Origin: an uncultured Planctomycetales bacterium
Lineage (GTDB): Bacteria; Omnitrophota; Gorgyraeia; Gygaellales; Profunditerraquicolaceae
Assembly (NCBI GenBank): GCA_964354795.1
Contig: CAYHBB010000014.1
Location: 17,249 to 81,248 of the forward strand
Direction of reading: 5' to 3'
DNA length: 64,000 bases
Shown here: positions 851 through 18,591 of the stretch, piece after piece
How the letters are laid out: each line of letters starts with the position of its first letter
How positions within the stretch are numbered: the stretch's first letter is position 1
Notes under the pieces: model-generated
Seen by the model: the letters and a program-made list of their open reading frames with translations, nothing else
The model's database searches: none
What the model was told of the DNA's origin: nothing
Translations under genes and position numbers: made by a program

Positions 851-2568
851 TATTCAGCTCCTATGGTAACAGAAAGCGCTTCTTCTAAAGAGGTAGTGCC
901 CTCTTCCACCTTGCGCAATCCTGATTCATACAATGTCTGCATTCCGGAGGCGCGCGCCACTTCCCTGATCCTCTGGAAAGAAGCCTTCTGGTTGATCAGT
1001 TCCTGTATCTGAGCATTGATCACCATCACCTCGCCTATACAAATCCTCTCCCTGTATCCTAATTGATTACACTTTGGGCAACCTTTGGCCCGATAGATCA
1101 ATTCTGCTTTCAATTTGACATGCTTAAGCTGCTCAGGGGTAGGCTCGTATGCTTCCTTACACTCAGGGCAAAGCTTACGCACCAGACGCTGGGCCACCAC
1201 ACATAATATAGAAGGAGCAAGCATGTAAGACTCGATACCTATATCCATGAGACGGGTGACCGCCGAAGAAGCGTCATTGGTATGCAAAGTACTTAACACC
1301 AAGTGGCCCGTAAGCGCTGAGCGGATACAGATCTGCGCGGTCTCTAAATCGCGCACTTCGCCGACTAGCATGACATCAGGATCCTGGCGCAGGAAGCTGC
1401 GCAAGCACGCTGCAAAAGTAAGGCCTATCTCAGGCTTGATCTGGACCTGGTTTATCCCCTCCAACTTATATTCCACGGGATCCTCGACAGTAATAATATT
1501 TTTCGATGGGCTCTTGATCTCATTAAGCATGGCATAAAGCGTAGTAGTCTTTCCGCTTCCTGTGGGCCCGGTCAAGAACACCAGGCCATAGGGGGCATTG
1601 ATGGATTTACGCATATCCTCTAACTGCTTTGGCTCAAACCCCATCCTGGCTAAATCCAGCACTACCTGGCTGCGGTTCAAAAGGCGCATTACCACTTTCT
1701 CGCCGTAAATTGTCGGAATTGTCGAAACACGGATATCTACGGGAAGGTTTTCCATCTTCACCATAAAAGCGCCGTCCTGAGGAAGGCGCTTTTCCGCTAT
1801 GTCTAATTTGGAAAGGATCTTGATACGCGAGATGATCGCCATATGCATGTGCTTTGCCGGCGGGGGGATCTCATAAAGCTTTCCGTCTATGCGATAGCGT
1901 AAGTTTATCCTGTCCTTAAACGGCTCGATATGAATATCTGACGCGCGTTCGTCAATGGCCTGATGAATAATCAGGTCCACTAATTTTACTACCGGCGCCT
2001 CTTCCGCGCGGGCGATCATTTTATCCAGGCTTAGCTCCTGGCCGGACACCTCCACCTCGGATGAGAACTCAACACCAGTGATATCATAACTGGCATTCAC
2101 CGCATCCTTAAGCATAGCGGACTTACCGTAGAAATCCGTTACCGCCTTTGCAATATCAGACTTGGTGGCCACAACCGCATTTACTTCGCAACCGGTAAGT
2201 TTACGCAGATTATCTATGAGGATCAAATCCAGGGGATCTGCTAATGCAACGGTAAGGGATCTGAGTGTGCGGGACAGCGCAAGGACTGAATTCTTTATGG
2301 CGAATTCCTGAGGGATCAAACGCTCAAGGCCCTGGTCATTGGCGGGCTTAAGCATCCCGGTGCCAAGCGAGAAATATGGAATATTGAGCTGCCGGCCGAG
2401 GACCGCCACCAGCTGGTCTTCTTTTACCAACCCCAACTTCACCACGATTTCACCGAGACGGCCACCCTCCTGCCGCTGCGTGCTTATAGCTTTTTCCAGC
2501 TGGTCCGCGCTGATAAGGCCTTCCTGCACCAGAAGCTCACCCAATCTAAGATACTTCTCTTTGGCCAT
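850..2568 (-). CDS. pilB: Type IV pilus assembly / T2SS ATPase (GspE/PilB family)
   Basis: 572 aa. N-terminal GspE_N-like domain, Walker A LTGPTGSGKTTTLYA, C-terminal CPECK...CPKC zinc motif. Confidence 0.9.
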   Translation of the reverse strand: MAKEKYLRLGELLVQEGLISADQLEKAISTQRQEGGRLGEIVVKLGLVKEDQLVAVLGRQLNIPYFSLGTGMLKPANDQGLERLIPQEFAIKNSVLALSRTLRSLTVALADPLDLILIDNLRKLTGCEVNAVVATKSDIAKAVTDFYGKSAMLKDAVNASYDITGVEFSSEVEVSGQELSLDKMIARAEEAPVVKLVDLIIHQAIDERASDIHIEPFKDRINLRYRIDGKLYEIPPPAKHMHMAIISRIKILSKLDIAEKRLPQDGAFMVKMENLPVDIRVSTIPTIYGEKVVMRLLNRSQVVLDLARMGFEPKQLEDMRKSINAPYGLVFLTGPTGSGKTTTLYAMLNEIKSPSKNIITVEDPVEYKLEGINQVQIKPEIGLTFAACLRSFLRQDPDVMLVGEVRDLETAQICIRSALTGHLVLSTLHTNDASSAVTRLMDIGIESYMLAPSILCVVAQRLVRKLCPECKEAYEPTPEQLKHVKLKAELIYRAKGCPKCNQLGYRERICIGEVMVINAQIQELINQKASFQRIREVARASGMQTLYESGLRKVEEGTTSLEEALSVTIGAE

Positions 2569-2589
2569 AGGAAAGTTTACCGAAGGGCC

Positions 2590-4224
2590 TTATTTCTCGT
2601 AGTTGCTGATATATTTATTTATGGTGGCCTGCCTGTTTACTACAGCAGCGTCACCCTGTTCTCTCTGAGGCATCATCGCTTTTGCCGCTCTCATCGGTTT
2701 AGGCCCCTGTACAATTTCAGAAGGCTTTACGTCACGAATGATGTGCGGCGTGATAAATACCAGCAGCTCGCGCTCTTTGCCGGGGGTCTGGGACTTGTGC
2801 CGGAAAGCTGCGCCAATAAACGGCAAGTCTCCCAGAATGGGAAGCTTACTGACTACGGTGGTGGTATCATTACGGATTAAACCGCCAATAACGATAGTCT
2901 CTCCGTCTTTTAGTTTAACTACCTGCTTGGTGCTTCTTTCTTCCGGGTCTCTAAACTGAAAGGTGCCGCTTGCACCCATTTCAAAAGGCTGGCCTGCCGA
3001 AGCTGTGCTGACTTTCGGATAGACAAAAAGCGTTATTTCTCCTGCATCCACATTGATCTGTGGACTGACCCGAAGAATGACACCGGTCCAAGCACGCTCT
3101 GCCGTATTCGTAGTAGTTCCCGTACCACCTGTTGAGGTGGCAGATGAAGTTAATCCAATAGCTTCATTAGTAGCGATCCTAATCTCTGCGGTCTCATTAT
3201 TCAAGGTCATGATCCGCGGACGAGCCAAAATCTTAGTATCAGTTTGCGTAGTCAGAAAGTCGAAAGTTAATGTGCTTCCAATAAGAGTAAAGATTGAAGG
3301 CCCAAAATGAGCCGCATTCCAAGGAGCGAAATCCCAACCGCCACCGAATTGGTCGGCGGCAGGATCAATCGTCCTGCCTTTGCCACTCGTACCATTGTTG
3401 TCTCCAAAAGGCCATGATGTCTCCCTGGTACCGGAAACAGTTAAGCTTGCTAAAGTTGTCGGCCACTGCACACCCAGCTCATCCACCACGTTCTTAGCCA
3501 CATCCAGCATCTCTACTTCCAGCAATACCTGCGGAATAGCCATGTCCAACGCAGCCACAATCTGAGTGATCACTTCCATACGGCTAGGAATATCGGTAAC
3601 AATAAGGCTGTTGGTGCGGTAATCCTCGATCAACGAGCCATTAGCGGAAAGGATCTTCTTAATGGCATAGGTGATCCCTGACTCATCCTCCACCTTCCAT
3701 TTTCCCTTTTCCGTAGTACTGCTATCTGTCGTTGTACTGGTTGTTGTAGTCTCGCTTCCTGCCATCAACGTTGTGTCGCCGGTCAGATTAGTACTCATCT
3801 CTTCCTTCATGGAGGAAGAAGATACTGATGCGTTCTTAAGGTAAAAAACTTTTGTAACTGTCTCAACTGTCGGCTTTCCCCAGTCCTTTACAATAAAAAT
3901 CTTGGCCTGCTTATCCATATTATAGGAAAGGTTATTGGCCTTAAACAGATTATTCATCGCCTCGCTCAAAGGCACCTTATCCATATAGAGGGTGACTTTC
4001 CTGTCTTGAACCCCTTCTGAAGCAAGGAAATTCATTCCCGACTGGATGGAAAATACTTTCAGGACATCCTTAAGGTTAGCGTCCTGAAAATCCATAGAGA
4101 TAGTCGGCTCAACATCCGGATATGGAAGTGTTGCGTCGGCAGACAGCCTTGATACAGGTATAAACATAGCGAGCAAGAAAATAATTAAGCCTGATCTTAA
4201 ATACGATTTCATATTAACCTCCAC
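2590..4224 (-). CDS. pilQ: Secretin (PilQ/GspD family) with signal peptide. Start may be the internal MKSYLR at 4212.
   Basis: 544 aa. Signal peptide, secretin N-domains, Thr/Ser-rich linker, C-terminal secretin motifs GETIVIGGLI...LPILGDLPFIGAAFR...RELLVFITPHII. Confidence 0.85.
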   Translation of the reverse strand: MEVNMKSYLRSGLIIFLLAMFIPVSRLSADATLPYPDVEPTISMDFQDANLKDVLKVFSIQSGMNFLASEGVQDRKVTLYMDKVPLSEAMNNLFKANNLSYNMDKQAKIFIVKDWGKPTVETVTKVFYLKNASVSSSSMKEEMSTNLTGDTTLMAGSETTTTSTTTDSSTTEKGKWKVEDESGITYAIKKILSANGSLIEDYRTNSLIVTDIPSRMEVITQIVAALDMAIPQVLLEVEMLDVAKNVVDELGVQWPTTLASLTVSGTRETSWPFGDNNGTSGKGRTIDPAADQFGGGWDFAPWNAAHFGPSIFTLIGSTLTFDFLTTQTDTKILARPRIMTLNNETAEIRIATNEAIGLTSSATSTGGTGTTTNTAERAWTGVILRVSPQINVDAGEITLFVYPKVSTASAGQPFEMGASGTFQFRDPEERSTKQVVKLKDGETIVIGGLIRNDTTTVVSKLPILGDLPFIGAAFRHKSQTPGKERELLVFITPHIIRDVKPSEIVQGPKPMRAAKAMMPQREQGDAAVVNRQATINKYISNYEK

Positions 4225-4666
4225 TAGGTTTGGTTCCGGCGCCGGATCCAGCAGCCGGTGATGAGATAGCTGATTCTGACCCTTCGAATAAGACGATTAT
4301 ACCTTCTTTCGCAATAGCCTTTATCTTGACGCCTTCTATAGTATCCCCTACTTTTAAGACCTTATTGTTGATGATCGCCTGCGGGAAATTCCCCCCCCAG
4401 ATGACCCCTTGCACCGTAAGCGCCGGCAAAGGCTTCTTTTCTACGGGGTTGACTTCCTCGCCTGTCCCGGACTGCCCGCCTTTACCCATAAAAGGATCGC
4501 GCAACCCTTGAGCCGAATAATCGACCTTAGGCCGAAGCAACTGATCCGGTGATTGCGCCGAAACAGTTTTTTCAGCACCCACAAAGCTCTGCGCAAAACA
4601 AACCACAGAAAAGACCACACTTAAGACCATCGCCACAGACAACAAACAATATTTTGTTTTTCTCAT
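4214..4666 (-). CDS. PilP-like pilus assembly lipoprotein (secreted, 150 aa)
   Basis: Signal peptide MRKTKYCLLSVAMVLSVVFSVVCFA. C-terminal beta-rich segment VQGVIWGGNFPQAIINNKVLKVGDTIEGVKIKAI resembles the PilP C-domain. Located between pilO and pilQ. Confidence 0.45.
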   Translation of the reverse strand: MRKTKYCLLSVAMVLSVVFSVVCFAQSFVGAEKTVSAQSPDQLLRPKVDYSAQGLRDPFMGKGGQSGTGEEVNPVEKKPLPALTVQGVIWGGNFPQAIINNKVLKVGDTIEGVKIKAIAKEGIIVLFEGSESAISSPAAGSGAGTKPSGG

Positions 4667-4670
4667 AATT

Positions 4671-5183
4671 TTATTCTGCCAGCGCTATGGAGGCGATAGT
4701 CACATTAGCCATAAGCCTGCCGGGCTCTCCCTCTTTGCCTGTTGTGATCTCAACCGAATCCACCACATAAACATCCTGAGCGCTTTCTATTGCGCTGATG
4801 AATTTACCCAACGCATGGTAACTTGGAGGAGCTACCGTTAAAACAAAGGGCATCCTGATGAATTCATTTATTTTTACCTCCGGCACCGGCTTGACAGTGA
4901 CCACCCGAATGCCTAGTTCCTTAGCCATATTAGTGATTGTCGCCATGACCAGGCTGGTATCTTTTTTAGTCAGCAGCTTGCGGTAAGCGGCCATAGTCTT
5001 CTCTGACTGATCAATCTCCTCCAGCTTCTTAGACTTATCCTGCTCATTCTTAATATCGCTTGAAAGCTTTATCTTAGCCTGCTCATTTTTCTGATAAAGT
5101 TGGAAAGCGACAACTCCGGCAATGACAACCACGATAAGATTTAACACTAAGTTCTTCTTTTTATTAGTCTGGTCTGATCCCAT
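4671..5183 (-). CDS. pilO: PilO-like pilus assembly protein (single TM, coiled coil, ferredoxin-like domain)
   Basis: 170 aa. N-terminal TM LVLNLIVVVIAGVVAF, charged coiled coil, then a C-terminal domain. Position between pilMN and pilP. Confidence 0.55.
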   Translation of the reverse strand: MGSDQTNKKKNLVLNLIVVVIAGVVAFQLYQKNEQAKIKLSSDIKNEQDKSKKLEEIDQSEKTMAAYRKLLTKKDTSLVMATITNMAKELGIRVVTVKPVPEVKINEFIRMPFVLTVAPPSYHALGKFISAIESAQDVYVVDSVEITTGKEGEPGRLMANVTIASIALAE

Positions 5184-5196
5184 AGTATTTATCCCT

Positions 5197-6747
5197 TTAA
5201 TTAGTTGTACAAGAGATGGAGAACGTGGTCATATTCACCGCGCCCTCACCCTCTGCACGATCAAGCACCAAAAGTTTAATATTTGTAAAATACTTGGTGA
5301 AGCTCGGGTTCTCTTTAAGGCTGGCAATGAATTTATTGACCGCCTCAAACTCCTTCTCGCCATCACCCATATCTGCTAACCCTTTTAGCTGCAGGTCCCC
5401 ACTATCCTTATCTTTTTTGAAGGTAAAGTTAGTCAGCCATACCCCGTCCGGAATCACCCGCGGTATCACATCAAGCGGCTGAGTCAGATAAAGCTGCTTC
5501 TTTACCAGCCCGTCAAGATAGCTAAGGCGGGTTTTGAAAATGGTATCCACCGTAAGCATCTGATCAAAAGTGGCGCCTGGACTTACCGAAGCCACTTTTA
5601 CCTGCTTACTGATTACCTGAGCCAATTCTTCCTTCAGAGGATTGGTCTGAGTCTGGCCGTAAATGATCACCCCGGCACATATCGCTACCCCCAACACAAC
5701 CGCCAGCGGATTTATTTTAAACCCTTTGAAAAGCGTTGCCACATCTATCTGTCCGGCTTTGGCCGGTCCGACTTGCTTACGCGCGCGAGCCGCCAAAAGG
5801 TTCAACTTAATATCGCTGCGGATCGCAGGCGCAAGAGAAGTAGTAAACCCCTTTACGAAGTTAGAATCAAATTGCACAGGCTTTCCGAAATACTTAGACA
5901 AATCAAGAAACTGCGCTGAAAGGCCGGTATCCATTACTGAGGCCTCCAGCTCAGAGCGATTCTCGGGATTTGAAATAAGGAATAACTTCTGGATGCTCTT
6001 GGCCGGGAACTTACGGTGGTAATAATCCAAAGACACGCGGATCTCGGTCTTAAGCTTTTCCATAGCCATACCTACATCCGACTCAACGCCGCGGCTGAAC
6101 TCATCGGGCCCGCCGGCTAAATTAATATCCCGGCTAAAAACCGGAAAACCGTTCTCGAGCACGGTAAAGTTGACCTCATCTTCGCCTTTAAGATCGGCAC
6201 AGACAATACCGACAATGCCCTTATTGCTGATGCCCGATAGCCCCAGCGCCCGGATGAGGCTGAACGCCGAATACTCTATGGACCGAACCTTGATGCCCAA
6301 CTCGCTAGTTATAGTAAAGTAACGCTCAAGAGTCTCTTTCTTGATGCCCATAAAAAGGACTTGATTCCTCTTGTTGACCTTATCAAACTCTAGCTGATAA
6401 TCAGAAACCAGTTCTTCCATTTTAAAAGGAATATACTTCTTCGCCTCAAAAGTAATGGCACTACCTATCTCCTCACGCGGCAGGACAGGGATATCGAAAT
6501 TACGGATGATCAGATCCTTTCCGCAAAGACTAAGCGTAGCCTCTTTGGCGTTGATCTTATTCCTGCGCAACTCATCCTTAAAGAGAGCTACAATCTCAAT
6601 AGTCTTAAGCTCGGTCGGGACCTTTTCTCCCAGCTCTCCCGTAGCAACTGTCGATTGCAACAGCTGAGTGTTGACAACAAGCTTTTTACCGCTGGTTTCT
6701 ACTACGCTAATAACTTTGGGCCCGAAATAGATGCCTAGTGAACTCAT
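5197..6747 (-). CDS. pilM: PilM-PilN fusion: actin-like ATPase-fold PilM followed by a TM and a PilN-like periplasmic domain
   Basis: 516 aa. N-terminal ~330 aa with a PilM/FtsA-like fold; internal TM PLAVVLGVAICAGVIIYG at about aa 335-355; C-terminal ~160 aa PilN-like. Confidence 0.7.
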   Translation of the reverse strand: MSSLGIYFGPKVISVVETSGKKLVVNTQLLQSTVATGELGEKVPTELKTIEIVALFKDELRRNKINAKEATLSLCGKDLIIRNFDIPVLPREEIGSAITFEAKKYIPFKMEELVSDYQLEFDKVNKRNQVLFMGIKKETLERYFTITSELGIKVRSIEYSAFSLIRALGLSGISNKGIVGIVCADLKGEDEVNFTVLENGFPVFSRDINLAGGPDEFSRGVESDVGMAMEKLKTEIRVSLDYYHRKFPAKSIQKLFLISNPENRSELEASVMDTGLSAQFLDLSKYFGKPVQFDSNFVKGFTTSLAPAIRSDIKLNLLAARARKQVGPAKAGQIDVATLFKGFKINPLAVVLGVAICAGVIIYGQTQTNPLKEELAQVISKQVKVASVSPGATFDQMLTVDTIFKTRLSYLDGLVKKQLYLTQPLDVIPRVIPDGVWLTNFTFKKDKDSGDLQLKGLADMGDGEKEFEAVNKFIASLKENPSFTKYFTNIKLLVLDRAEGEGAVNMTTFSISCTTN

Positions 6748-6944
6748 TGTTTATCTCCAGATTTTTGGTCTTTGGATAAGCGCCTCTTGCTCTTGAGCCA
6801 ATTATCAATTTCCTTATGCTCAAATCTCCAGACGCCTCCGACCTTTATCCCGGTAATCTTGCGTTGATGCAGCCAATTATAAATAGTCTGCTTCTTTAAG
6901 CGAAGATAGTCGGCCAATTCATCTATGTCCATCAGCTTTGCCAT
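6744..6944 (-). CDS. Small excisionase-family (MerR-like HTH_17) DNA-binding protein, first gene of the pilus operon
   Basis: 66 aa, MAKLMDIDELADYLRLKKQTIYNWLHQRKITGIKVGGVWRFEHKEIDNWL. Matches the excisionase-type HTH pattern (..TIY.w...G.lpa.K.Gg.WRf....ld.WL). ATGA overlap with the pilMN start. Confidence 0.6.
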   Translation of the reverse strand: MAKLMDIDELADYLRLKKQTIYNWLHQRKITGIKVGGVWRFEHKEIDNWLKSKRRLSKDQKSGDKQ

Positions 6945-6984: not shown

Positions 6985-7013
6985 ATTAAACCACAAAGAA
7001 TCACTTTTGTCAA
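6985..7013 (-). promoter_or_regulatory. Sigma70-like promoter for the HTH-pilMNOPQBC operon: TTGACA, 17-nt spacer, TTTAAT on the minus strand
   Basis: Plus tgtcaa at 7008-7013 is the revcomp of TTGACA; plus attaaa at 6985-6990 is the revcomp of TTTAAT; spacer 17 nt; about 35 nt upstream of the HTH ATG. Confidence 0.35.
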
Positions 7014-7139: not shown

Positions 7140-7547
7140 CTACGGAGTAGTGTAGGTGTAGGTAGACGTGCAGGTAATGCAGGCAGCCACCCCTGGAGAT
7201 GGACAAGCTGGATCGCTATCAGCTCTGATTATTAAGGAAACGCCAGTTATCGAGGCAGGCTTGAAATCATTGACTAAATCCAAGCTGACATTGGCGGCAT
7301 TGCAAGGCGAAGCAGCTCTGCAATTCGTTCCGGCAACCCAGGTACCTCTCCTTAACTGTTCCTGGGCATAGGTAACCGCTGCCTTAGAGGCGTAATAGGC
7401 TTGTATACGGGACAACTGATGGTGTGTAAGGCGGGACTGGTTAGAGATAAGATTCATGACCGCAGTTGCCAAAAGCACGCTCACCAGGATCGTAGCTAAA
7501 ACAATGACTAAGACTACACCTTTATTATTCTTACTTAGTTCAACCAT
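7140..7547 (-). CDS. PilX/GspK-like minor pseudopilin with a Cys-rich C-terminus
   Basis: 135 aa. KNNKG then a hydrophobic helix VVLVIVLATILVSVLLATAVMNL with no Glu at +5. ISNQSRLTHHQLSRIQAYYASKAAVTYAQEQL resembles the PilX N-terminal domain. Confidence 0.5.
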   Translation of the reverse strand: MVELSKNNKGVVLVIVLATILVSVLLATAVMNLISNQSRLTHHQLSRIQAYYASKAAVTYAQEQLRRGTWVAGTNCRAASPCNAANVSLDLVNDFKPASITGVSLIIRADSDPACPSPGVAACITCTSTYTYTTP

Positions 7548-7746
7548 CTTTCCTTAAGGAAATTCTATAGTCTCCCTGGACCTGTTGCAGGATCACGTGC
7601 CCTTCCCTGGCCAGCCAGCCCAGGCTCATCAGGACATTATCCCGCGGCTTATCGATGCCCTTTACCAATACTGCCAGGGCTACCTCTCCGTGCAAATCCA
7701 AATAATGCCAGATCTCTCCCGCGACAATACCAATTTCTGTTATCAT
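7540..7746 (-). CDS. Small winged-helix protein (DUF2582-like), 68 aa
   Basis: MITEIGIVAGEIWHYLDLHGEVALAVLVKGIDKPRDNVLMSLGWLAREGHVILQQ. wHTH-like small protein pattern. 8-nt overlap with the downstream pseudopilin gene. Confidence 0.4.
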   Translation of the reverse strand: MITEIGIVAGEIWHYLDLHGEVALAVLVKGIDKPRDNVLMSLGWLAREGHVILQQVQGDYRISLRKDG

Positions 7747-7792
7747 GAATTACCTCCAATTTTTATTATACGGAAAATAAAAATTATGTCAA

Positions 7793-8014
7793 TTATTTTT
7801 TGTTATAACTTCCGCAGCGCGGGCAAACCGAGATCTTGTCTTCCTTAGTATTTACATAATTATAAGTGCAGACAGAGCAAAACCATATATACTTAGGGTC
7901 CAGTGTAAGGCCCTTGCTTTTTTCTTTTCTACGCATGACAGAAACGCACATTAAGGTAAATACTATAAATACTATATATATAGCTATTGAGCTAGAGAAA
8001 TCTAAGGTGATCAC
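7793..8014 (-). CDS. Small membrane protein with a C-terminal CxxC...CxxC zinc-ribbon
   Basis: 73 aa. TM helix IAIYIVFIVFTLMCVSV, then CSVCTYNYVNTKEDKISVCPRCGS. 4-nt overlap with the upstream TonB-like gene. Confidence 0.4.
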   Translation of the reverse strand: MITLDFSSSIAIYIVFIVFTLMCVSVMRRKEKSKGLTLDPKYIWFCSVCTYNYVNTKEDKISVCPRCGSYNKK

Positions 8015-8652
8015 TTCTTCTCCGACAGGTCGATCTTGACCGTATGCCAGCTGTTAGGAGAGAAACGGTTCTGCTGGATGAACAGGTAATGACTCATGTA
8101 GCGCATGGTCAAAAGGTCTACCTCGGGGTTGCCCGATGAGATCTTGCGCTTTATGGCGATGGCGTTACCCGTATGCGTGGGAATGATCTTGAACATGACC
8201 TCTACGTGCGCCACGTGCCTGTCCTTAAAATAAAGCGTGAACCCGTAAGGAAGTATAGGATGAAATACGATATTGGGTTCACTACCCTTACGCACAAAGC
8301 GCCCGGGTGCGGACTTTTGAACGTAAACGCTCTTAGAGAAACCGCGCCCGTATTCCAGGGAAGGCTTTATGTAGCCTGGGGAGACGGCGACAGCCTCACT
8401 CTTGGCTCTAGGGGTAGCCGTTAATCCTTGAGGCCGTCTGAAAAAATCGCCGATGACTTTTATATTATTAAGGGAATTGCTGCTGAGCTTGTAACGCGCG
8501 GACATCGGAATATCGCTCCAGAAAGAAACGCGGCCGTAACTTTCAGCGCCAGGAAGTTTTTGCCCAAAGGATACGGCCACAAGGCTTAAAACCGCAAGGT
8601 GCCCGACCGCGGAATATACTAAGCTTTTTCTGGAAAGCGCAAGATTCAGCAT
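8011..8652 (-). CDS. TonB-family energy transducer-like protein
   Basis: 213 aa. N-terminal TM with an S-x-x-x-H motif (YSAVGHLAVLSLVAV) as in the TonB TM. C-terminal region ILPYGF...HVAHVEVMFKIIPTHTGNAIAIKRKISSGNPEVDLLTMRYMSHYLF resembles the TonB C-domain. Directly downstream of exbB-exbD. Confidence 0.5.
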   Translation of the reverse strand: MLNLALSRKSLVYSAVGHLAVLSLVAVSFGQKLPGAESYGRVSFWSDIPMSARYKLSSNSLNNIKVIGDFFRRPQGLTATPRAKSEAVAVSPGYIKPSLEYGRGFSKSVYVQKSAPGRFVRKGSEPNIVFHPILPYGFTLYFKDRHVAHVEVMFKIIPTHTGNAIAIKRKISSGNPEVDLLTMRYMSHYLFIQQNRFSPNSWHTVKIDLSEKK

Positions 8653-8653
8653 C

Positions 8654-9055
8654 CTACTCCTGGTTGGTCGCGATAAACACCCGCGTAATGCCTGCTGAGC
8701 GGGCCATATCCCAGATCTTGGCCGCTCTTCCTAAAGAGCTGCTGCGATCGGCCTTGATCAATATTGCGGCCCTGCCCCTAGAGATCTGCTTGAATGCCGC
8801 CTCAAGCTCGTCATCAGATACTACCCGCCCGTTTAAAGAAGCCACATTCTCGGAGCTGACCAGCACTTCGATATTTTCCCGGCTCACCGCCTCGCTGGTC
8901 ACCGCGCGCGGCAGGTTCACCGGCACCGCCGGCTGAGAGACAAACCCTGAGCCAAGCATCACGAATATCAACAACAGGAATGCCACGTTGACGAGCGGCG
9001 CGATATCCATTGACTTAAGCCCGTGCTCAAATTCCATCCTGCCTTTAAATTTCAT
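8654..9055 (-). CDS. exbD: Biopolymer transport protein ExbD/TolR
   Basis: 133 aa, single TM PLVNVAFLLLIFVMLGS, ExbD-type periplasmic domain. Confidence 0.85.
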   Translation of the reverse strand: MKFKGRMEFEHGLKSMDIAPLVNVAFLLLIFVMLGSGFVSQPAVPVNLPRAVTSEAVSRENIEVLVSSENVASLNGRVVSDDELEAAFKQISRGRAAILIKADRSSSLGRAAKIWDMARSAGITRVFIATNQE

Positions 9056-9062
9056 CCCGCGG

Positions 9063-9701
9063 TTACTCCGTTAAAAAATTAACCAGCTCTGTCGATGCGC
9101 GCTCCATCTCCAGAATATAGCGATTTATACGGCTCACCAGATAATTGTAGGCTATGTACACAGGTATGGCTACCAAAAGCCCGGCAATAGTCACCAGCAA
9201 CGCTTCCCAGATCCCTCCTGCCATATCAGCGCAAAGCACCGGGTATAAGCCTTGAGCCTTTGCCTGAATAGCCTGAAAACACCTGGCCAGGCCTATGACT
9301 GTCCCAAGCAAACCTAAGAGCGGAGAAATATGCGCTATGGTCATAAGTACAGGAAGACTTTTTTCTATACGCGGTATCTCATACAAAGAAGCGTCTTCTA
9401 TGGCTTCGATTATCTGGGCCCGCGGCCGGTCGTATTTCAATATCCCGGCTTTGAGAATATTGGCGATAGGGCTATTGGTATTGTCGCATATCTCTAGCGC
9501 CTCTTTTGTCTCGTGGCGTTTCATCTTCTCCATCAAACTGCTTAGAAACTCCTCGGTATTGATCTTTGCCTTATTGAGGTACAGAAATTTCTCGATCACC
9601 ACCGCCAGAGCCAGTACAGAGCACAGCAGGATCGGCCACATCACCGGACCGCCGGATAAAAACAACTTGACCAAAGATATCTTATCTAAACCCATATTCA
9701 T
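9063..9701 (-). CDS. exbB: MotA/TolQ/ExbB proton channel protein
   Basis: 212 aa, three TM segments, conserved C-terminal TM pair (AGGIWEALLVTIAGLLVAIPVYIAYNYL). Confidence 0.85.
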   Translation of the reverse strand: MNMGLDKISLVKLFLSGGPVMWPILLCSVLALAVVIEKFLYLNKAKINTEEFLSSLMEKMKRHETKEALEICDNTNSPIANILKAGILKYDRPRAQIIEAIEDASLYEIPRIEKSLPVLMTIAHISPLLGLLGTVIGLARCFQAIQAKAQGLYPVLCADMAGGIWEALLVTIAGLLVAIPVYIAYNYLVSRINRYILEMERASTELVNFLTE

Positions 9702-9707
9702 TATCTC

Positions 9708-12188
9708 CTATTTTGTCTTGGAGCCAATGCGGTCTATCTGCTCCTGGGCGAATTTCCCTTCCTCCACATTCATGGAGACCACTTTTGCGTAAATATTCAG
9801 CGCCTCTTTGAATTTATCCCTATCCTCGTAGATCGCTGCCACGCGTAAAAGCGCCTTGACCACCAGCACGGTATCCTCAGGGTATACATAGGTGACCTTA
9901 AGATATTCCCCCACCGCCTCATCAGCCTTGCCCTGCGCCTCGCGGACTTCCGCGATCTTCAGCTGTATGCCAGCCATCTCCCGCACCGGGACCGCATCCA
10001 GGCTCTTACGATAAAATTCCAGAGCATCGTCATACTTGTTCATTTTGTAATACACATCTGCCAGCTTAGGATAGATCAAGTGCGTGAGATTCGGAAATGC
10101 CCGGATAATATCAGAATAGGTCTTTATGGCCATCTCATGCAAATCCCGCTTTACATAAATATCCGCGATTGCCACCACTGCCTGCCCGGTGAGGTCAGAC
10201 TTAGTCAGCTCGATGATGCGCTTGAAATTCTCTAACGCCTCATCATGCCTACTCTCCTCTTCATAGCAGGAGCCTAAAGCATAATAGGCGTCCGGTACCA
10301 GGCTGCTTTTGGAGAAATCATGGATGAGCGTTGAGAAATATTTGCGCGCCAGCTGCAGATCCCCCTGACGGTAATAATACTCTCCCAGCCACCACATGAT
10401 CTCCGCGGTAAGGCTTGAGTCAGGATATTTAGAACGCAGGATCTTAAAGCGGGTAATCGCTTCGTTTTCATTACCCATCTGAGAATAACAGTCCGCGATC
10501 TCGTATTCGGCTTTCTGAGTAAGCTCAGGGTTCTGCGGGTAAGATTTGATGATGTCCTTAAAGACGTCGATTGCCTCCTGGAACCTACCCAGGTTATACA
10601 GGCTTGCGCCCAGAAGATACAGCGCCTGAGAGGCCATACTGCTGGACTTAAATTCGTTCTGGAACTTAACAAACTCCTCGCGGCTGGATTTGTAATCCTG
10701 CTTCTGAAAATACGCCGAGCCCAATGCGTAAGCGGCGTCATCGATCAGCTTTGACTGCGCATAATTCTTTTTTAGCGCCTGAAACGCCAGGATCGCTCCG
10801 TCGTAATTTGAATTCCTAAGCAAGGCCAGGCCAGCCTGATACTGCACGTAATCGCTATAGAAGCTGTCCGGATAATCCTTTAATATAGTGTCGTAGGTCT
10901 CCTGTGCCCGCAGGTAATCTCCTGAGTCCTGATAGGCGTCGCCTATCTGGCAGAGCGCGCTGACCTTGATGATCTTGTCGTCGCTATCCCTGACGATCTT
11001 CTTGAACTCCTGGATCGCGCCCTTGAACTCCCCCTGCTTCAGATACACCCAAGCCAGATTATAATGCAGCTTATCCGCCACTTCTCCCGGCACTGACCCC
11101 GCGCCCAATTTAGAGATCGCCTCTTGATAGACTTTAAGAGACGCATCATACTCGGCAAGGCCGTATAAGACCTCAGCCTTTCCCAGGTACGCCTCCATAG
11201 ACACCAGCGGGTCCTGAGCTGTCTGGGATAATTTATCATAAAGAGCCTTTGCCTCATTCAGGCGGTTGGTCTCAGACATCAGGACCGCCTTGCCTAAAAT
11301 CAGGATATCGGCGCTGCGTTTATCCAGAGCCGCCTCTTTTACCTCAAGGAACGCGTTTTGAGCCTCGGTGTAACGCTTAAGCTTAAGGAGCGACCAGGCT
11401 TTCCCCAGCATGGACAAAGCCTGCAAAGCCTCATCGCGGCTGGACTGGATCACCTTGATATAAGCATCCAACGCCTCATTAAAATTATTCAGATCGTATT
11501 CCGATTCGGCAAGATAAAAATACAGGTAGGCAAGCTTTTCCGGATCTTTTGCGTAAAGCTTAAGGTCAGCTCTTAAGCGCTCCTTCAGCCGGTCATAATC
11601 CTTTAAATTATACAGACACTGAATGATTTTAAAAGGCACATCCTGCATCTGGAGACCTTTAGGATACTTTTCTTCCGCGATCTTAAAATACTTGAGAGCT
11701 TCAGAAAACTTGTTATCCTGGAATAACGACCAGCCCAAAGAATAATACGCCGCCGGGACATAGGAAGATTTAGGAAACTCGTTGATAATTGCCTTGTAAT
11801 ACTGGGCAGCGCGGTCAAAATTATTCCCCCTGAACTGCACCTCCGCGATCCAATAATATACGGCGTCTTTAAGATCCGCGGCTTGAGGAAGGCTCAAAAG
11901 GCTCTCAAATTTATTCAGGGCATCCAGAAAGCGGTTCTGCTGAAAATAGCACTGTCCGATAAGCAGGCTGGCTTCTGCCGCTTCAGGAGAATCAGGATAG
12001 CTCTTTTGGAAACGCTCAAGCAGGCCGAGCGATACATCATAGAACCCGTCGTCAAAAGCTTTTTTCGCCACAAAAATGGCCTCTTCTTCCTTTTGACTGT
12101 CGGCTTGGCTTTCAGCGCAGAATACGCGAGAATTACTGAAGGCAAGGATTAAACTGCAGAGAATAATTACTACGAAGCTCTTCTTCAT
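9708..12188 (-). CDS. Secreted tetratricopeptide-repeat protein (826 aa), YbgF/CpoB-style TPR array
   Basis: Signal peptide. About 20 TPR-like repeats (AxxxY/F..G.Y..A...F..) throughout. Confidence 0.8.
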   Translation of the reverse strand: MKKSFVVIILCSLILAFSNSRVFCAESQADSQKEEEAIFVAKKAFDDGFYDVSLGLLERFQKSYPDSPEAAEASLLIGQCYFQQNRFLDALNKFESLLSLPQAADLKDAVYYWIAEVQFRGNNFDRAAQYYKAIINEFPKSSYVPAAYYSLGWSLFQDNKFSEALKYFKIAEEKYPKGLQMQDVPFKIIQCLYNLKDYDRLKERLRADLKLYAKDPEKLAYLYFYLAESEYDLNNFNEALDAYIKVIQSSRDEALQALSMLGKAWSLLKLKRYTEAQNAFLEVKEAALDKRSADILILGKAVLMSETNRLNEAKALYDKLSQTAQDPLVSMEAYLGKAEVLYGLAEYDASLKVYQEAISKLGAGSVPGEVADKLHYNLAWVYLKQGEFKGAIQEFKKIVRDSDDKIIKVSALCQIGDAYQDSGDYLRAQETYDTILKDYPDSFYSDYVQYQAGLALLRNSNYDGAILAFQALKKNYAQSKLIDDAAYALGSAYFQKQDYKSSREEFVKFQNEFKSSSMASQALYLLGASLYNLGRFQEAIDVFKDIIKSYPQNPELTQKAEYEIADCYSQMGNENEAITRFKILRSKYPDSSLTAEIMWWLGEYYYRQGDLQLARKYFSTLIHDFSKSSLVPDAYYALGSCYEEESRHDEALENFKRIIELTKSDLTGQAVVAIADIYVKRDLHEMAIKTYSDIIRAFPNLTHLIYPKLADVYYKMNKYDDALEFYRKSLDAVPVREMAGIQLKIAEVREAQGKADEAVGEYLKVTYVYPEDTVLVVKALLRVAAIYEDRDKFKEALNIYAKVVSMNVEEGKFAQEQIDRIGSKTK

Positions 12189-12210: not shown

Positions 12211-15012
12211 TTATTTGCTATTCAATACCTTTCTCAAGGATGTACCCGTATAGGAAGCGAGGACCTTCACCAGCTGCTCAGGAGCGCAGGCAGCCACCAC
12301 CTTACCACCCTTATCCCCTCCCTCAGGCCCGAGATCAACGATATAGTCAGCGCACTTTATCACTTCCAGATTATGCTCAATGACGATAACCGTATTTCCC
12401 TTATCCACCAGCCTCTGCAAAACCGCGAGAAGCTTGGCCACATCGGCAAAATGCAATCCCGTAGTCGGCTCATCAAGGATATACAGGGTCTTGCCGGTAG
12501 AACGCTTGCTTAATTCCGAAGATAACTTGATACGCTGGGCCTCTCCTCCGGACAAAGTAGTGGCAAATTGCCCAAGCTGTATATAGCCCAGGCCAACATC
12601 AAGACAATAGGTAAGAGTATTTTTGATCTGGGGGATATTGGCAAAAAGCTCCAGCGCTTCCTCAACCGTCATCTCCAGCACCTGGGCAATGGATTTACCT
12701 TTATATTTCACGTCCAAAGTAGCCTCATTAAAGCGCAGGCCGCCGCAGACTTCGCATTTCACGTAGACATCGGGAAGAAAATGCATCTCGATCTTTTTGA
12801 TCCCGTCTCCCCGGCAGGCTTCGCACCTGCCGCCTTTGACATTGAAAGAAAACCTGCCCGGCTTATACCCGCGCATCTTCGATTCCGGAAGCTTGCTGTA
12901 GAAATCCCGGATATGGTTAAACACCCCGGTATAGGTCGCGGGGTTGGAGCGCGGAGTCCTGCCGATGGGAGACTGATCCACCACAATTACTTTATCGATA
13001 AATTCGATTCCCTCGATATTTTTATGCAGGCCGGGTTTTTCTTTTGATTTATAAAGTTTCTGGGCGAGTGAGCGGTATAGGATTTCATCGATCAGCGTAG
13101 ATTTGCCAGATCCGGATACGCCGGTAATACAGATGAAATTGCCCAGAGGAAACTTTACATCGATATTTTTCAGGTTATGCTCGCGCGCGCCCTTTATTTC
13201 CAAAAACCTTTTCTCCTGCGGCTGGCGGCGCCTGGCCGGCACATCGATTTTAAGCTCTCTCCTTAAATACTTGGCGGTAAGAGAGCGGGAATCTTTAAGC
13301 AGCTCATCTTTTGTGCCGGAGAAAACCACTTCACCTCCGTGCCTGCCTGCTCCGGGGCCGAGATCCACGATATAATCCGCATTTCGGATGGTTGCCTCGT
13401 CATGCTCTACTACAATCAAAGTATTTCCCAGGTCTCTTAAAGCTTTAAGAGTAGCCAGCAGCTTATCGTTGTCCCGCTGATGCAGGCCGATACTGGGTTC
13501 ATCCAAAACATATAATACCCCAACCAGGCCTGAGCCTACCTGGGTAGCCAGACGGATCCTCTGGGCCTCTCCGCCGGAAAGCGTGGCACTTTTTCTATCC
13601 AGCGTAAGATAATCCAGGCCCACATCGATGCAAAACTTCAGCTTCTGCTTGATCTCTTTTAAAACCTGATGCGCGATAACCTTTTCTTTGTCATTAAGCT
13701 CTAGGCTGTCGAAAAACTGCTGGGCTGCCTTTATCGACATCTGGGTGGATTCCCAGATATTTTTGCCGTTGATCTTGACCGCCAGGCTTTCTTTTTTAAG
13801 GCGCGCGCCTTTGCAGGCTGGACACGGCAGGCTAGACATGAAACGAGAGATCTCTTCTTTCAGATAATCGCTGTCAGTATCACGGAATAATCTTTCCAGA
13901 TGCGGGATCACCCCTTCAAAAGGCTTTCCGTTGACGTGCACATCGCTTCCGTAAAGTATGGCTTTCTGCGATTCCTTACTCAACTGCTTAAACGGAGTGT
14001 CTAAGTCAAACTTCAGAGCACAGGACGACTCGCGTATCAGCCAGCGATAATACAGGATATACCCTCTTCCTCCTCTTTTCCACGGGGCAAGCGCGCCGTC
14101 GTTAATGGATTTCGTCTTATCCGGGATCACTAAGTCCGGATCAAATTCCAGCTTCATCCCCAAGCCGTTACATTCCAAACAAGCGCCGTAAGGAGAGTTG
14201 AAAGAAAATATCCGCGGCTCCACCTCCGCGTAATTTATCCCGCACTTTGTGCAGGCGTACTGCTCGCTGAATACTTGCTCGGATTTCACAGCAGTGCTGG
14301 TTACCAGGACTATTCCCCCACCCACCTTAAGTGAGGTCTCCACGGAATCCGTAAGCCGACTTTTAATACTGGGCTTAATGGTAAGCCTATCCACCACCAC
14401 CTCAATATTATGGGCTTTATATTTGGCCAGCTTAAGTTTAACAGGCAGCTCATAGACTTTGCCGTCCACCCTGGCGCGGATAAAACCTGATTTCTGGATC
14501 TGGGAAGATATATCCCGGTACTCGCCTTTTCTGCCGCGCACCAGAGGAGCCAGTATCTGGATATCGCTTCCCGCGGGAAGGGACATGATCTTTGCGATGA
14601 TCTCCTGAGAGCTCTGGCGCTCAATAGAATGGCCGCACTGGTAGCAATGGATCTTTCCGATACGGGCAAAAAGCAACCTCAGGTAATCGTAGATCTCGGT
14701 CTGGGTGGCGACGGTCGAACGGGGATTGCCGCCGGCACTCCTTTGCTCGATAGCGATGGTGGGAGAAAGCCCGGAAATATACTCGATATCCGGCTTCTGC
14801 AGCTGCTCTAAAAATTGGCGGGCATAGCTCGAAAGGCTCTCCACAAACCTGCGCTGGCCTTCGGCGTAAATAGTATCGAAGGCAAGGCTGGACTTGCCCG
14901 AGCCAGACAATCCGGTGAATACAATAAGCGAATTGCGCGGAAGCTCGAGGCTGATATTCTTAAGATTATGCTCCCTTGCCCCGCGAATAATGATTGATTC
15001 TTTTTGTTCCAT
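12211..15012 (-). CDS. uvrA: Excinuclease ABC subunit A
   Basis: 933 aa. Two ABC modules ([22 protein letters not shown]; [11 protein letters not shown]), zinc-finger Cys clusters, LSGGEAQRI signatures. Confidence 0.97.
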
Positions 15013-17852: not shown

Positions 17853-18591
17853 CGGGGTCGAATATTCTGAATTTCATAATACCTGACTTCTGCAGCAGGA
17901 ATTGCAAAGTTGTGCCTATGACGCCAAAACCATAGGTAATACTGCGTAAGAAGGAAATTGAAGATGAGGCGCTGGTATAACGCGAAGGCGCGGTGATCTC
18001 TCCTATGCGGAACTTTCGATAAATAGCCTGCACCAGCATCTGATTATCAAAAACGAAATCATCGGAGTTCTCGGCAAGAGCAAGATCCAAAAGCACCTCC
18101 CGGGAAAACGCGCGGTAGCCGGTATGATACTCGGATATCTTCTGCCTTAGGAATATATTCTCAAAGAAAGTAAGCAGCCTGTTGGCGACATATTTATAGC
18201 CTGGCATACCGCCGCGTAGCGCCATGCCTCCCAATATTCTTGAGCCAAGCACTACATCGAACATCCCGGAAGCGATAAGCCCGACCATGGCGGTGATGAG
18301 CCTAGGAGGATACTGGTAATCCGGATGCAGCATCACCACAATATCCGCTTGGGCCTTAAGCGCCTGGCGATAGCAGGTCTTCTGGTTAGCACCGTATCCC
18401 AAATTTTGCGGGTGGACAAAAAATTTAAGATTCAGCCGGCGGGCGACATCTACGGTGCGGTCGCGGCTTGCGTCATCCACAAGAAGCACCTCATCGACCA
18501 CGCCTTTCGGTATATCGCGATAGGTTTCTTCCAGCGTCTTCTCGGCGTTATATGCCGGCAATACGACTATGACCTTTTTTCCTTCAAGCAT
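17830..18591 (-). CDS. GT2 family polyprenol-phosphate glycosyltransferase (DPM1/ArnC-like)
   Basis: 253 aa. VIVVLPAYNAEKTLEETYRDIP...VLLVDDASRDRT...DADLQ-like GT-A signature. Confidence 0.8.
   Translation of the reverse strand: MLEGKKVIVVLPAYNAEKTLEETYRDIPKGVVDEVLLVDDASRDRTVDVARRLNLKFFVHPQNLGYGANQKTCYRQALKAQADIVVMLHPDYQYPPRLITAMVGLIASGMFDVVLGSRILGGMALRGGMPGYKYVANRLLTFFENIFLRQKISEYHTGYRAFSREVLLDLALAENSDDFVFDNQMLVQAIYRKFRIGEITAPSRYTSASSSISFLRSITYGFGVIGTTLQFLLQKSGIMKFRIFDPDGKKLIC

Follow-up and report, generated by a model that had tools for sequence, protein, structure and literature searches.

A candidate Tol-like envelope module beside type IVa pilus genes with their own predicted promoters in Omnitrophota

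Results

Gene content of the locus

The stretch of DNA analysed here (hereafter the window, 64,000 nucleotides) carries on its minus strand a run of genes extending from uvrA to a type IVa pilus (T4aP) operon. The seven minus-strand genes listed in a preliminary description of this DNA, from a TPR protein gene to a pilin gene, were all found, with unchanged coordinates. The features of the locus are the following, with the evidence for each in brackets:

12211..15012, minus strand, uvrA (ORF and translation; UvrA Pfam domains on orthologs)
9708..12188, minus strand, TPR protein, 826 aa (TPR_6 1.6e-66, TPR_16 2e-64, YfiO 4.4e-20)
9063..9701, minus strand, exbB, ExbB/TolQ-like stator A subunit, 212 aa (PF01618, 1e-28)
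8654..9055, minus strand, exbD, ExbD/TolR-like stator B subunit, 133 aa (PF02472, 3.6e-20)
8011..8652, minus strand, X213, TonB/TolA-like transducer candidate, 213 aa (SxxxH transmembrane (TM) helix, gene position, modelled C-terminal domain)
7793..8014, minus strand, ZnR, bitopic zinc-ribbon protein, 73 aa (sequence; weak zinc-ribbon Pfam matches)
7765..7792, minus strand, predicted sigma-70-type promoter TTGACA-16-TATAAT (12/12 consensus match)
7540..7746, minus strand, DUF2582 winged-helix (wHTH) protein, 68 aa (PF10771, 2e-11)
7140..7547, minus strand, candidate PilX/GspK-class minor pseudopilin, 135 aa (GspK N-terminus 4.9e-7, ComGG 1.5e-3)
6985..7013, minus strand, promoter-like TTGACA-17-TTTAAT in the 195-nt gap before HTH_17-pilMN (sequence)
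6744..6944, minus strand, HTH_17 (excisionase-type) DNA-binding protein, 66 aa (PF12728, 1.2e-14)
1..6747, minus strand, T4aP operon (Pfam, sequence, translation), comprising:
5197-6747, minus strand, PilM-PilN fusion (Pfam PilM_2, PilN)
4671-5183, minus strand, PilO (Pfam PilO)
4214-4666, minus strand, PilP-like protein (T2SSB)
2590-4224, minus strand, PilQ secretin (Secretin, Secretin_N, weak STN)
850-2568, minus strand, PilB (sequence and ortholog Pfam annotation)
849 and below, minus strand, PilC, incomplete as it exits the window (N-terminus translated)

The order uvrA–TPR–exbB–exbD–X213–ZnR, then wHTH–pilin, then HTH–pilMNOPQBC is kept across the phylum Omnitrophota. On the upstream side, 22 nt separate uvrA and the TPR gene, which adjoin in 56/56 loci. 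The exbB and exbD genes are neighbours separated by 7 nt, and X213 comes directly after exbD, the two overlapping by a median of 4 nt across loci. In the window, the last 4 nt of X213 are shared with the start of ZnR (median overlap across loci, 8 nt), and ZnR comes after X213 in nearly every sufficiently long locus (80 X213-ZnR junctions scored). The DUF2582 and pilin genes have 8 nt in common in the window, which is also the median overlap (-8 nt), and the HTH_17 gene shares 4 nt with the pilMN start. Short intergenic gaps are the norm in the source genome.

The stator is TolQ-like and, in the window, lacks the canonical membrane aspartate

The profile searches bore out the exbB and exbD assignments of the preliminary description, as well as those of the TPR and wHTH proteins, the latter being confirmed as DUF2582. 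Both stator subunits scored above the gathering threshold: 100.1 bits for MotA_ExbB (PF01618; cut-off 22.9) and 72.8 bits for ExbD (PF02472; cut-off 25.4). The ExbB-like protein scored higher with the TolQ model (106.6 bits) than with the ExbB model (62.4 bits), both under cut-off; the same preference was found in 7/7 orthologs, and TolQ was the top NCBIfam model in 8/8 proteins tested. The TolQ equivalog TIGR02796 was not reached at 106.6 bits (cut-off 221), nor was the TolR equivalog TIGR02801 (41.4 bits; cut-off 127.3). Among the PADLOC defence models only ZorA gave a match (E 0.0019, 15 bits), the other proteins giving none; this match reflects generic MotA homology, and a Zorya-type anti-phage system was rejected.

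The transmembrane helix of the window ExbD bears an asparagine (APLVNVAF, residue 23, codon at about 8987-8989) in place of the canonical aspartate. This aspartate is presumably the protonatable and essential residue of the B subunit (ExbD D25, TolR D23), the equivalence of Asn23 with the E. coli residue being read from the motif P-x-x-D-V with the TM segment left unaligned by BLASTP. At this column (79 ungapped of 80 aligned sequences, window included) Asp is present 61 times, Asn 16, Gly once and Ser once, the Asn being shared by the window and 15 other species. Where A subunits of this 5:2 motor family have conserved polar channel residues in TM2 and TM3 (Thr, Thr, Glu), the window ExbB keeps T134, T171 and E166, and it has Ile, Val and Val at the family-consensus positions T136, T170 and T181. 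Across the family, a non-Asp ExbD co-varies with losses in ExbB, at T170 (10/18), T136 (8/18) and E166 (4/18), compared to at most 3/59 for the same residues when the ExbD Asp is present. In two loci (L077 and L084) the acidic residue is gone from both the ExbD TM helix and ExbB position E166.

Since the window ExbD has Asn and not the essential membrane Asp, proton drive of this copy is doubtful, and the label of PMF-driven motor that it had been given is undercut; the stator of most Omnitrophota, which keeps the canonical Asp, is probably proton-driven. With polar channel residues of its ExbB lost as well, the window-lineage copy may be a static scaffold or may use a non-canonical ion path. 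The substitution, its co-variation with the ExbB losses, the two doubly substituted loci and the intact, syntenic state of the genes would all fit a degenerate or structural TolQR-like scaffold which has kept X213, ZnR and the TPR protein as partners and conducts no protons, a reading that we consider possible but rather unlikely. Indeed, ExbB T134, T171 and E166 and the S14 and H18 residues of X213 are retained, exbB and exbD have stayed intact and conserved, with 95.8% and 90.2% identity to their counterparts in L005, which implies selection, and a non-canonical ion pathway may be in use.

The wHTH–pilin pair has its own conserved predicted promoter

The ZnR and wHTH genes are separated by 46 nt, a gap filled by the 12/12 promoter, which comes right after the stop codon of ZnR, leaves 18 nt to the start of the wHTH gene and is followed by GGAGG. 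A match of at least 11/12 is present at this boundary in 54 of 64 related loci (84%) versus 0.3% of shuffles, and a 10-11/12 match is kept upstream of DUF2582 in 8/8 rearranged loci in which the upstream genes differ. Similarly, an 11/12 match in the gap before the HTH_17 gene was found in 49/60 loci versus 1.7% of shuffles. At the uvrA-TPR junction, no match of at least 11/12 was found in any of the 56 loci. As judged from these consensus matches, the wHTH–pilin pair is predicted to have its own promoter, and the single operon reaching through the pilin gene that had been proposed for this locus is therefore not supported. The separation is one of promoters: no terminator-like site was predicted between the motor genes and the pilin gene in the window, and read-through may occur.

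The two gene groups are also separable in the phylum. Motor, pilin and T4aP genes adjoin in nearly all Omnitrophota loci; however, the motor module stands without T4aP genes alongside in L010/L085, L026 and L036, uvrA-TPR is followed directly by DUF2582-pilin-T4aP, with the exbB-ZnR block missing, in L118, L145, L151 and L158, and T4aP loci without X213 and ZnR are found in L125, L127 and L136. The rearrangement breakpoints sit at the ZnR-DUF2582 boundary. The TPR gene stays beside uvrA even in loci without exbB-ZnR, and the adjacency of uvrA, like that of other housekeeping neighbours, to the motor genes is as conserved as that of the motor to the pilus genes. Because the pilin gene has its own conserved promoter, the motor and pilus modules are long-standing neighbours but probably not one machine.

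These data bear on the proposal that a PMF-driven Ton/Tol motor, encoded in one operon with the pilin, energises pilus dynamics, secretin gating or pilus-tied outer-membrane transport, the TonB-like C-terminal domain acting on PilQ or the pseudopilin. The near-universal adjacency, the L079 locus, in which the T4P cluster comes directly after ZnR despite rearrangement, the weak STN (secretin/TonB N-terminal) domain of PilQ and the lack of predicted terminators between the units are consistent with it. A precedent exists as well, and the pairing, described at first as unusual, is not without parallel: in P. aeruginosa the ExbBD-TonB homologues PocAB-TonB3 are required for T4aP, and a contact between the TonB3 C-terminal domain and the PilQ N-terminal (N0) region has been suggested (PMC5285504). 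The Poc genes, however, lie away from the pil operon, whereas the Omnitrophota module is adjacent to it, and homology between X213 and TonB3 is undetectable. The independent promoter, the loci having only one of the two modules, the equally conserved housekeeping adjacency and the missing ExbD Asp make the one-operon proposal improbable to us: the adjacency that it started from is conserved across Omnitrophota, but the functional coupling lacks direct support. We attach a similarly low probability to X213 and ZnR being a new class of Tol/Ton-like transducer, specific to Omnitrophota, that physically couples a TolQR-type stator to the T4aP machine. Such coupling, for instance via the PilQ STN/N0 region, would place, gate or retract pili in ultra-small, host-attached bacteria, and the lineages with an Asn-type ExbD would be a natural variant, not proton-driven or otherwise coupled.

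The pilin candidate resembles GspK and PilX at its N-terminus

The DUF2582 protein is very highly conserved (median 76.5% identity across the phylum), and the product of the overlapping pilin gene evolves very fast: the window pilin is 47% identical to its L005 counterpart, compared to 81-98% for the neighbouring genes. Its N-terminus (MVELSKNNKG followed by VVLVIVLATIL) has a short basic leader ending in Gly10, at least 90% conserved, and then a hydrophobic helix without Glu5. This is the prepilin type of the GspK/PilX/ComGG kind, and cleavage is predicted after Gly10. The window pilin scored 29.6 bits with GspK (NF037980; cut-off 130), over the N-terminal 60 aa only, and did not match PilX_N (PF14341). 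Among 30 family members, GspK was matched by 29, ComGG by 17 and PilX_N by 13 (best 2.8e-6), and several homologs carry the JGI name PilX. The name PilX-like thus stands at the family level for the N-terminal ~60 aa, but not for the rest of the protein, and the cut-offs were not reached. As in those systems, the gene has T4aP assembly genes as neighbours; in contrast to them, it is located away from other pilin genes and coupled to a cytoplasmic DUF2582 wHTH gene, the family is short (110-165 aa versus about 300 aa for GspK) and the small, Cys-rich, fast-evolving C-terminal domain matches no known family.

X213, the TPR protein and ZnR

X213 comprises a TM helix with the motif S14xxxH18, a variable linker of ~95 aa and, at the C-terminus, a conserved domain of beta-beta-alpha-beta order. 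None of the 77 tabulated sequences differs at S14 or H18; in an alignment of 35 sequences, H18 is invariant and S14 at least 90% conserved. The linker, with 8 Pro in ~95-97 residues, is predicted to be disordered (pLDDT below 50), and neither a Pro-rich (TonB) nor a long helical (TolA) periplasmic spacer was found. Searches with X213 and 35 relatives returned 0 Pfam or NCBIfam matches, leaving TonB_C (PF03544, PF13103; TIGR01352) and TolA domain III undetected, a PDB sequence search with X213 returned 0 matches at E<=10, and hhalign against a TonB C-terminal alignment gave a probability of 0.3%. An exhaustive profile search from X213 stayed inside about 300 proteins with no link to the huge TonB family. 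On these searches X213 belongs to a closed orphan family, restricted to Omnitrophota and with no known relatives. The modelled C-terminal domain weakly resembles those of TonB and TolA. The SxxxH helix and the stator-linked gene agree with the term TonB-like; the profile searches gave no match.

An ordinary TonB-ExbB-ExbD system powering TonB-dependent nutrient transporters, its TPR protein being an accessory of the kind encoded in many ton operons of Bacteroidota, is very unlikely: the ExbB-like protein consistently favours TolQ over ExbB models, X213 has neither a sequence-detectable TonB_C domain nor a Pro-rich linker and its family is unconnected to that of TonB, and no TonB-dependent receptor is present in the cluster or among the scanned window proteins.

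The TPR protein has a signal-like hydrophobic segment at its N-terminus and ~8 TPR modules of the YbgF/CpoB/BamD type, and is predicted to be periplasmic. It scored 267.7 bits with the domain model TIGR02795 (tol_pal_ybgF; cut-off 90.1), as 8 tandem stretches, and also exceeded the BamD cut-off; the full-length CpoB model was not reached (104.5 bits; cut-off 383). ZnR combines a TM helix at its N-terminus with a zinc ribbon in the cytoplasm, CxxC-x17-CxxC, whose Cys motif is conserved.

Discussion

The reading that we favour, and hold to be somewhat better than an even bet, is that of a Tol-like envelope module beside separately promoted type IVa pilus genes, the two forming distinct units and not one operon. 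The first unit (12188 to 7793), possibly co-transcribed with uvrA, would be the envelope module: X213 would engage an inner-membrane TolQ-like/TolR-like stator through its SxxxH membrane helix, its flexible linker would span the periplasm and its C-terminal domain would presumably dock an outer-envelope partner via strand addition, like TonB and TolA. The giant CpoB/YbgF-type TPR protein would serve as a periplasmic scaffold, and ZnR as an accessory on the cytoplasmic side. The second unit (7746 to 7140) would consist of the DUF2582 regulator translationally coupled to the minor pseudopilin; under its own consensus promoter, it would functionally belong to the downstream T4aP operon, itself under a third promoter.

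As in Tol-Pal (tolQ-tolR-tolA-tolB-pal-cpoB), a TolQ-like A subunit and a TolR/ExbD-like B subunit are directly followed by an SxxxH bitopic partner, a periplasmic protein is built of YbgF/CpoB-type TPR modules, and the module lies among housekeeping genes. Unlike Tol-Pal, neither TolB nor Pal is found in the cluster, its conserved neighbours or the scanned window proteins, all equivalog scores are under cut-off, X213 has neither the long helical domain II nor a sequence-detectable TolA domain III, the 826-aa TPR protein is encoded first, there is an extra TM and zinc-ribbon gene, and the window TolR-like protein has Asn for the essential Asp.

The same parts, namely a large periplasmic TPR protein, TolQ-like and TolR-like motor subunits and a bitopic TonB-like protein, occur in one cluster in the Agl-Glt core complex of Myxococcus and its relatives, described as a widespread unit whose function outside gliding bacteria is unknown (PMC3169522), and attachment to host cells and movement on them have been proposed for Omnitrophota (PMC10066038). 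That the module is a counterpart of this complex, transmitting force across the envelope for surface movement, perhaps on host-cell surfaces, or for another envelope task, is nevertheless the least probable of the readings considered here: the score with the GltC model is as low as 17.5 bits, there is a single ExbD/TolR-like gene instead of two, X213 lacks an FHA domain and its family is restricted to Omnitrophota, no Glt outer-membrane parts are present, and the zinc-ribbon partner is unique to the Omnitrophota module.

Gene layout and protein identities

All seven minus-strand ORFs of the preliminary description, which read them as one operon from a TPR gene to a pilin gene, were recovered in the window at their positions, downstream of uvrA:

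12211-15012, uvrA, upstream neighbour, 22-nt gap to the TPR gene
9708-12188, minus strand, TPR protein, 826 aa
9063-9701, minus strand, ExbB-like protein, 212 aa
8654-9055, minus strand, ExbD-like protein, 133 aa
8011-8652, minus strand, X213, TonB/TolA-like candidate, 213 aa
7793-8014, minus strand, ZnR, TM segment plus zinc ribbon (CxxC-x17-CxxC), 73 aa
7540-7746, minus strand, wHTH protein (DUF2582), 68 aa
7140-7547, minus strand, PsPil, pilin-like protein, 135 aa

The junctions from the TPR gene to PsPil measure 6, 7, 1, -4, 46 and -8 nt. A 195-nt gap lies 3' of PsPil, followed by genes for an HTH_17 protein, a PilM-PilN fusion, PilO, a PilP-like protein, the PilQ secretin, PilB and PilC, the last running beyond the window edge. 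The close spacing of the seven genes is nothing special in this genome; the minus strand carries about 64 of the 69 ORF-called genes of the window, and for 50 of 60 same-strand neighbours the spacing is at most 50 nt (median 4.5 nt).

Pfam and NCBIfam profiles agreed with the exbB, exbD, TPR and wHTH assignments, the Pfam matches being MotA_ExbB (1e-28), ExbD (3.6e-20), TPR_6 (1.6e-66) and DUF2582 (2e-11). The TPR protein contains eight YbgF/CpoB-type modules (NCBIfam TIGR02795, 267.7 bits, cut-off 90.1); it exceeds the BamD model and falls short of the full-length CpoB model. For the ExbB-like protein the TolQ model outscored the ExbB model by about 40 bits, both under the equivalog cut-off, and the same preference, always below that cut-off, was seen in seven diverse orthologs. 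ZnR matched no Pfam or NCBIfam family. As neither TolB nor Pal was found among the window proteins scanned, and as all equivalog scores are sub-threshold, assignment to a true Tol-Pal system is weakened. PADLOC detected no defence system, on which basis an anti-phage reading of the module was rejected. Searches against Rfam gave no family, either for the window or for four loci.

X213 belongs to an orphan family of probable transducers

The gene following exbD had been called TonB-like. By alignment, X213 starts with a TM helix bearing an S14xxxH18 motif, both residues being unchanged in 77/77 tabulated sequences; a variable linker of about 95 aa follows, predicted to be disordered and, with 8 Pro, not Pro-rich, and then a strongly conserved C-terminal domain of about 85 aa. 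No TonB or TolA link emerged when X213 and 35 relatives were compared with Pfam and NCBIfam, nor did the X213 profile reach TonB/TolA among PDB sequences; hhalign gave no link to an enterobacterial TonB C-terminal alignment, an alignment so narrow that sensitivity is reduced. When 1.84 billion representative proteins were searched exhaustively with the profile, again no connection to TonB or TolA appeared; there were 300 matches at E<=1e-3 (228 at E<=1e-30), the best 150 of the 300 all measuring 174-259 aa. Among 454 homologs, none has a Pfam domain and the named ones are all "hypothetical protein" of Candidatus Omnitrophota; the window is part of a 97.6-kb NCBI contig, and public records name ExbD and leave X213 "hypothetical". 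Since the profile search gives only these 300 matches, with the best 150 within this length range, X213 forms a closed orphan family separate from the very large TonB/TolA family, and it cannot be classed in either TonB or TolA. The motif, gene position, topology and a weak fold match nevertheless make it very probable that X213 functions in the manner of a TonB/TolA transducer.

The wHTH-pilin pair is preceded by a conserved predicted promoter

Co-transcription of the motor with the pilin gene had been proposed, independent promoters and terminators between them being named as evidence to the contrary. Between ZnR and the wHTH gene, the 46-nt gap contains, on the coding strand at 7792-7765, TTGACA-16-TATAAT, with GGAGG and ATG following; across the 15 kb scanned this is the sole 12/12 consensus match. 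A match of at least 11/12 was found in this gap in 54/64 non-redundant Omnitrophota loci versus 0.3% of shuffles, and in the gap between PsPil and HTH_17 in 49/60 loci versus 1.7% of shuffles (in the window, TTGACA-17-TTTAAT at 7013-6985); at the uvrA-TPR junction such a match occurred in 0/56 loci. In eight loci the gene 5' of DUF2582 is not ZnR (its place is taken by the TPR gene, a divergent exbD, an unrelated gene or one for an IS200-like transposase), and the predicted promoter was retained in all eight, at 10-11/12. The wHTH-pilin pair (unit 2) clearly has its own conserved predicted start signal, which argues against co-transcription as proposed. Because no terminator-like hairpin was predicted between the units in the window, some read-through from unit 1 (TPR gene to ZnR) into unit 2 may still occur.

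A dispersed intergenic element of about 60-80 nt, ...TTAATTCGC-[~12-nt stem]-loop-[complementary stem]-GCTCATTAAAAAA, occupies the ZnR-DUF2582 gap in other loci (L009, L012, L017, L020, L024, L031, L032, L049, L051 and L061) and also occurs at L010:2925-2986; the window has no copy. Its stems vary between genomes with complementarity kept, five exact pattern matches are oriented gene-wise, and no Rfam family matches. A REP/MITE-like element is one possible identity, an unusual terminator another.

Motor block and pilus genes are syntenic and separable

Among 80 X213-anchored loci (one genome per species), the order uvrA-TPR-ExbB-ExbD-X213-ZnR-DUF2582-PsPil-HTH17-PilMN-PilO-PilP-PilQ-PilB was colinear wherever the contig was long enough, and continued upstream into dapB, panC and folK-type housekeeping genes. 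The exceptions were L010/L085 and L036, with unrelated metabolic or glycosyltransferase genes after ZnR; L026, with such genes after X213 and no ZnR ORF called; and L079, with a differently arranged T4P cluster after ZnR. DUF2582 was taken as a second anchor in metagenomes, PsPil having no sufficiently conserved stretch, and 50 loci were informative upstream. X213 and ZnR were both present in 40 of these, and L111 retained ExbD and X213 with ZnR not detected. The exbB-ZnR block was absent from L118, L145 and L158, where uvrA-TPR is directly followed by DUF2582, and from L151, where the TPR gene alone was seen; in these four, PsPil and T4aP genes follow DUF2582 where the contig continues. A divergent ExbB/ExbD pair with the Asp present, and neither X213 nor ZnR, was found in L125, L127 and L136; L115 has an IS200-like transposase gene within the gap, L142 an unrelated upstream region, and PsPil is missing from L092, L106 and L108.

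Since the motor occurs without adjacent pili in some loci and pili without the motor block in others, the two are separable in both directions. The breakpoints fall at the promoter boundary, and the T4aP genes are no better conserved as neighbours than uvrA is. The neighbourhood of motor and T4P operon in the preliminary description is conserved across Omnitrophota, but the single-operon reading is not supported; the module offers a clean comparative example of motor-pili synteny that is very strong and yet does not equal an operon. The TPR gene is kept in L118, L145, L151, L158, L125, L127 and L136, and because these loci lack the exbB-ZnR block or X213-ZnR, the TPR protein may be independent of the motor.

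Natural Asn variants of the ExbD transmembrane Asp

In the ExbD, TolR and MotB families the TM helix contains an Asp that is essential (E. coli ExbD D25, TolR D23). The Omnitrophota consensus for this motif is APLIDIVF, and the window has APLVNVAF (codon at about 8987-8989). Among 79 ungapped sequences, the column holds Asp in 61, Asn in 16 (the window included; among the others are L005, L007, L014, L023, L026, L028, L041, L042, L049, L050, L065, L068, L073, L074 and L084), Gly in 1 and Ser in 1. The equivalence of the Asp and Asn positions is based on the family alignment and motif, because BLASTP alignments of the window ExbD with E. coli TolR and ExbD do not reach the TM helix. When ExbD is of non-Asp type, ExbB loses the polar TM residues T170 (10/18), T136 (8/18) and E166 (4/18), each lost in at most 3/59 when the Asp is present; L077 and L084 have no acidic residue left in the ExbD TM or at ExbB E166. 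Neighbour-joining placed the non-Asp lineages on the deep, long branches and gathered the Asp sequences in one large clade; with midpoint as the only rooting, the tree is compatible with change in either direction.

The Asn in ExbD and the co-varying ExbB losses make the label "PMF-driven" doubtful for the window's own copy. In Asn lineages the complex might, tentatively, be a non-motor scaffold, which is compatible with the Tol-like role proposed below. This series of Asn-type ExbD/TolR proteins with matching ExbB changes could show what an unprotonatable 5:2 stator does.

The pseudopilin and pilus-side genes

PsPil begins with MVELSKNNKG|VVLVIVLATIL, in which Gly10 is nearly invariant and Glu5 is lacking. 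Its first ~60 residues match GspK (4.9e-7), several homologs are labelled PilX by JGI, and family members match GspK (29/30), ComGG (17/30) and PilX_N (13/30), all under full-length cut-offs; no relatives are known for the Cys-rich C-terminal half, and the PilX/GspK-like assignment holds for the N-terminal part only. PsPil is 47% identical to its counterpart in the closest genome (L005), all 13 neighbouring proteins being 81-98% identical, which marks the gene as a local hotspot where sequences diverge or alleles are replaced and fits a surface-exposed pilus component. Its gene overlaps that of the extremely conserved DUF2582 protein by 8 nt (median across loci also -8), and the two are predicted to be translationally coupled.

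The HTH_17 protein (6744-6944) heads the pilMN operon at a position conserved across the phylum. It scored 69 bits with the MADS "MAD1" HTH model (cut-off 80; PADLOC mad1 match 1.3e-10), probably generic excisionase-type HTH similarity only. A second, short secretin-like ORF (61693-62496, 267 aa, Secretin and Secretin_N domains) is flanked by GGDEF diguanylate cyclase genes at 57751-61638 and 62506-63261, one of them encoding 1295 aa with an AAA_16 domain.

A proposed Tol-like trans-envelope module

Omnitrophota are uncultivated nanobacteria thought to be host-attached. The module, of Tol/Ton-like type, is specific to the phylum and includes an orphan transducer along with a Zn-ribbon partner; it is syntenic with T4aP genes, separately promoted from them and evolutionarily separable. 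We favour, with moderate confidence, the reading that unit 1 is a Tol-like trans-envelope module and that unit 2, which pairs the wHTH with the minor pseudopilin, is part of the T4aP system. The analysis establishes what the genes are, their predicted promoters, their synteny and their separability, and from these we infer the envelope role and docking mode of unit 1. The SxxxH helix of X213 would be gripped by the TolQ/TolR-like stator, and the conserved C-terminal domain of X213 would reach a partner in the outer envelope; in the periplasm the giant CpoB-type TPR protein would serve as scaffold, and ZnR would act on the cytoplasmic side. In function the module is comparable to Tol-Pal with CpoB and to TonB-ExbBD.

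The model first proposed, in which the motor energises the pilus, is not without parallel: the ExbBD-TonB homologues PocAB-TonB3 of P. aeruginosa are linked to T4aP, and TonB3 was suggested to contact the N0 part of PilQ (PMC5285504). The window PilQ gave an STN match of 25.1 bits, below cut-off. Given the separate predicted promoter and the two-way separability, we consider the pilus-energiser model unlikely; were the motor to act on the pilus, the locus would represent the poorly understood PocAB-TonB3 effect on T4P in a form hard-wired into the genome. A classical Ton uptake system would share ExbBD and a TonB-like motif, and is improbable beside the TolQ preference and the lack of any TonB match. 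Slightly less probable still is an Agl-Glt-core-like complex, which shares the architecture of TolQR-like, TonB-like and TPR proteins (PMC3169522).

The main Omnitrophota survey highlights near-universal type IVa pilus clusters, co-located with an F-type ATPase, and mentions neither TonB nor the neighbouring Tol-like module (PMC10066038). No account of this module in Omnitrophota, ExbB/TolQ included, was found in the literature searched. The module adds the orphan TonB/TolA-like transducer family with its conserved Zn-ribbon partner, for which there is no Pfam model; this family and the natural Asp-to-Asn stator variants are the main value of the module.

Genes around uvrA

Relative to L001, L003 and L085, where a short gene (79-80 aa) lies directly 5' of uvrA, the window has three inserted genes, at 15016-18591, that separate uvrA from a conserved 83-aa gene. 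One encodes a GT2 glycosyltransferase, and the other two encode polytopic membrane proteins resembling PMT_2-type glycosyltransferases. The 83-aa protein (18708-18959) matches no Pfam family and carries two copies of a KREKGYLYFxDKQGDVSCAKM motif. Related genomes have a gene of similar size (79-83 aa) upstream of uvrA, and the translated L010 copy has the same motif.
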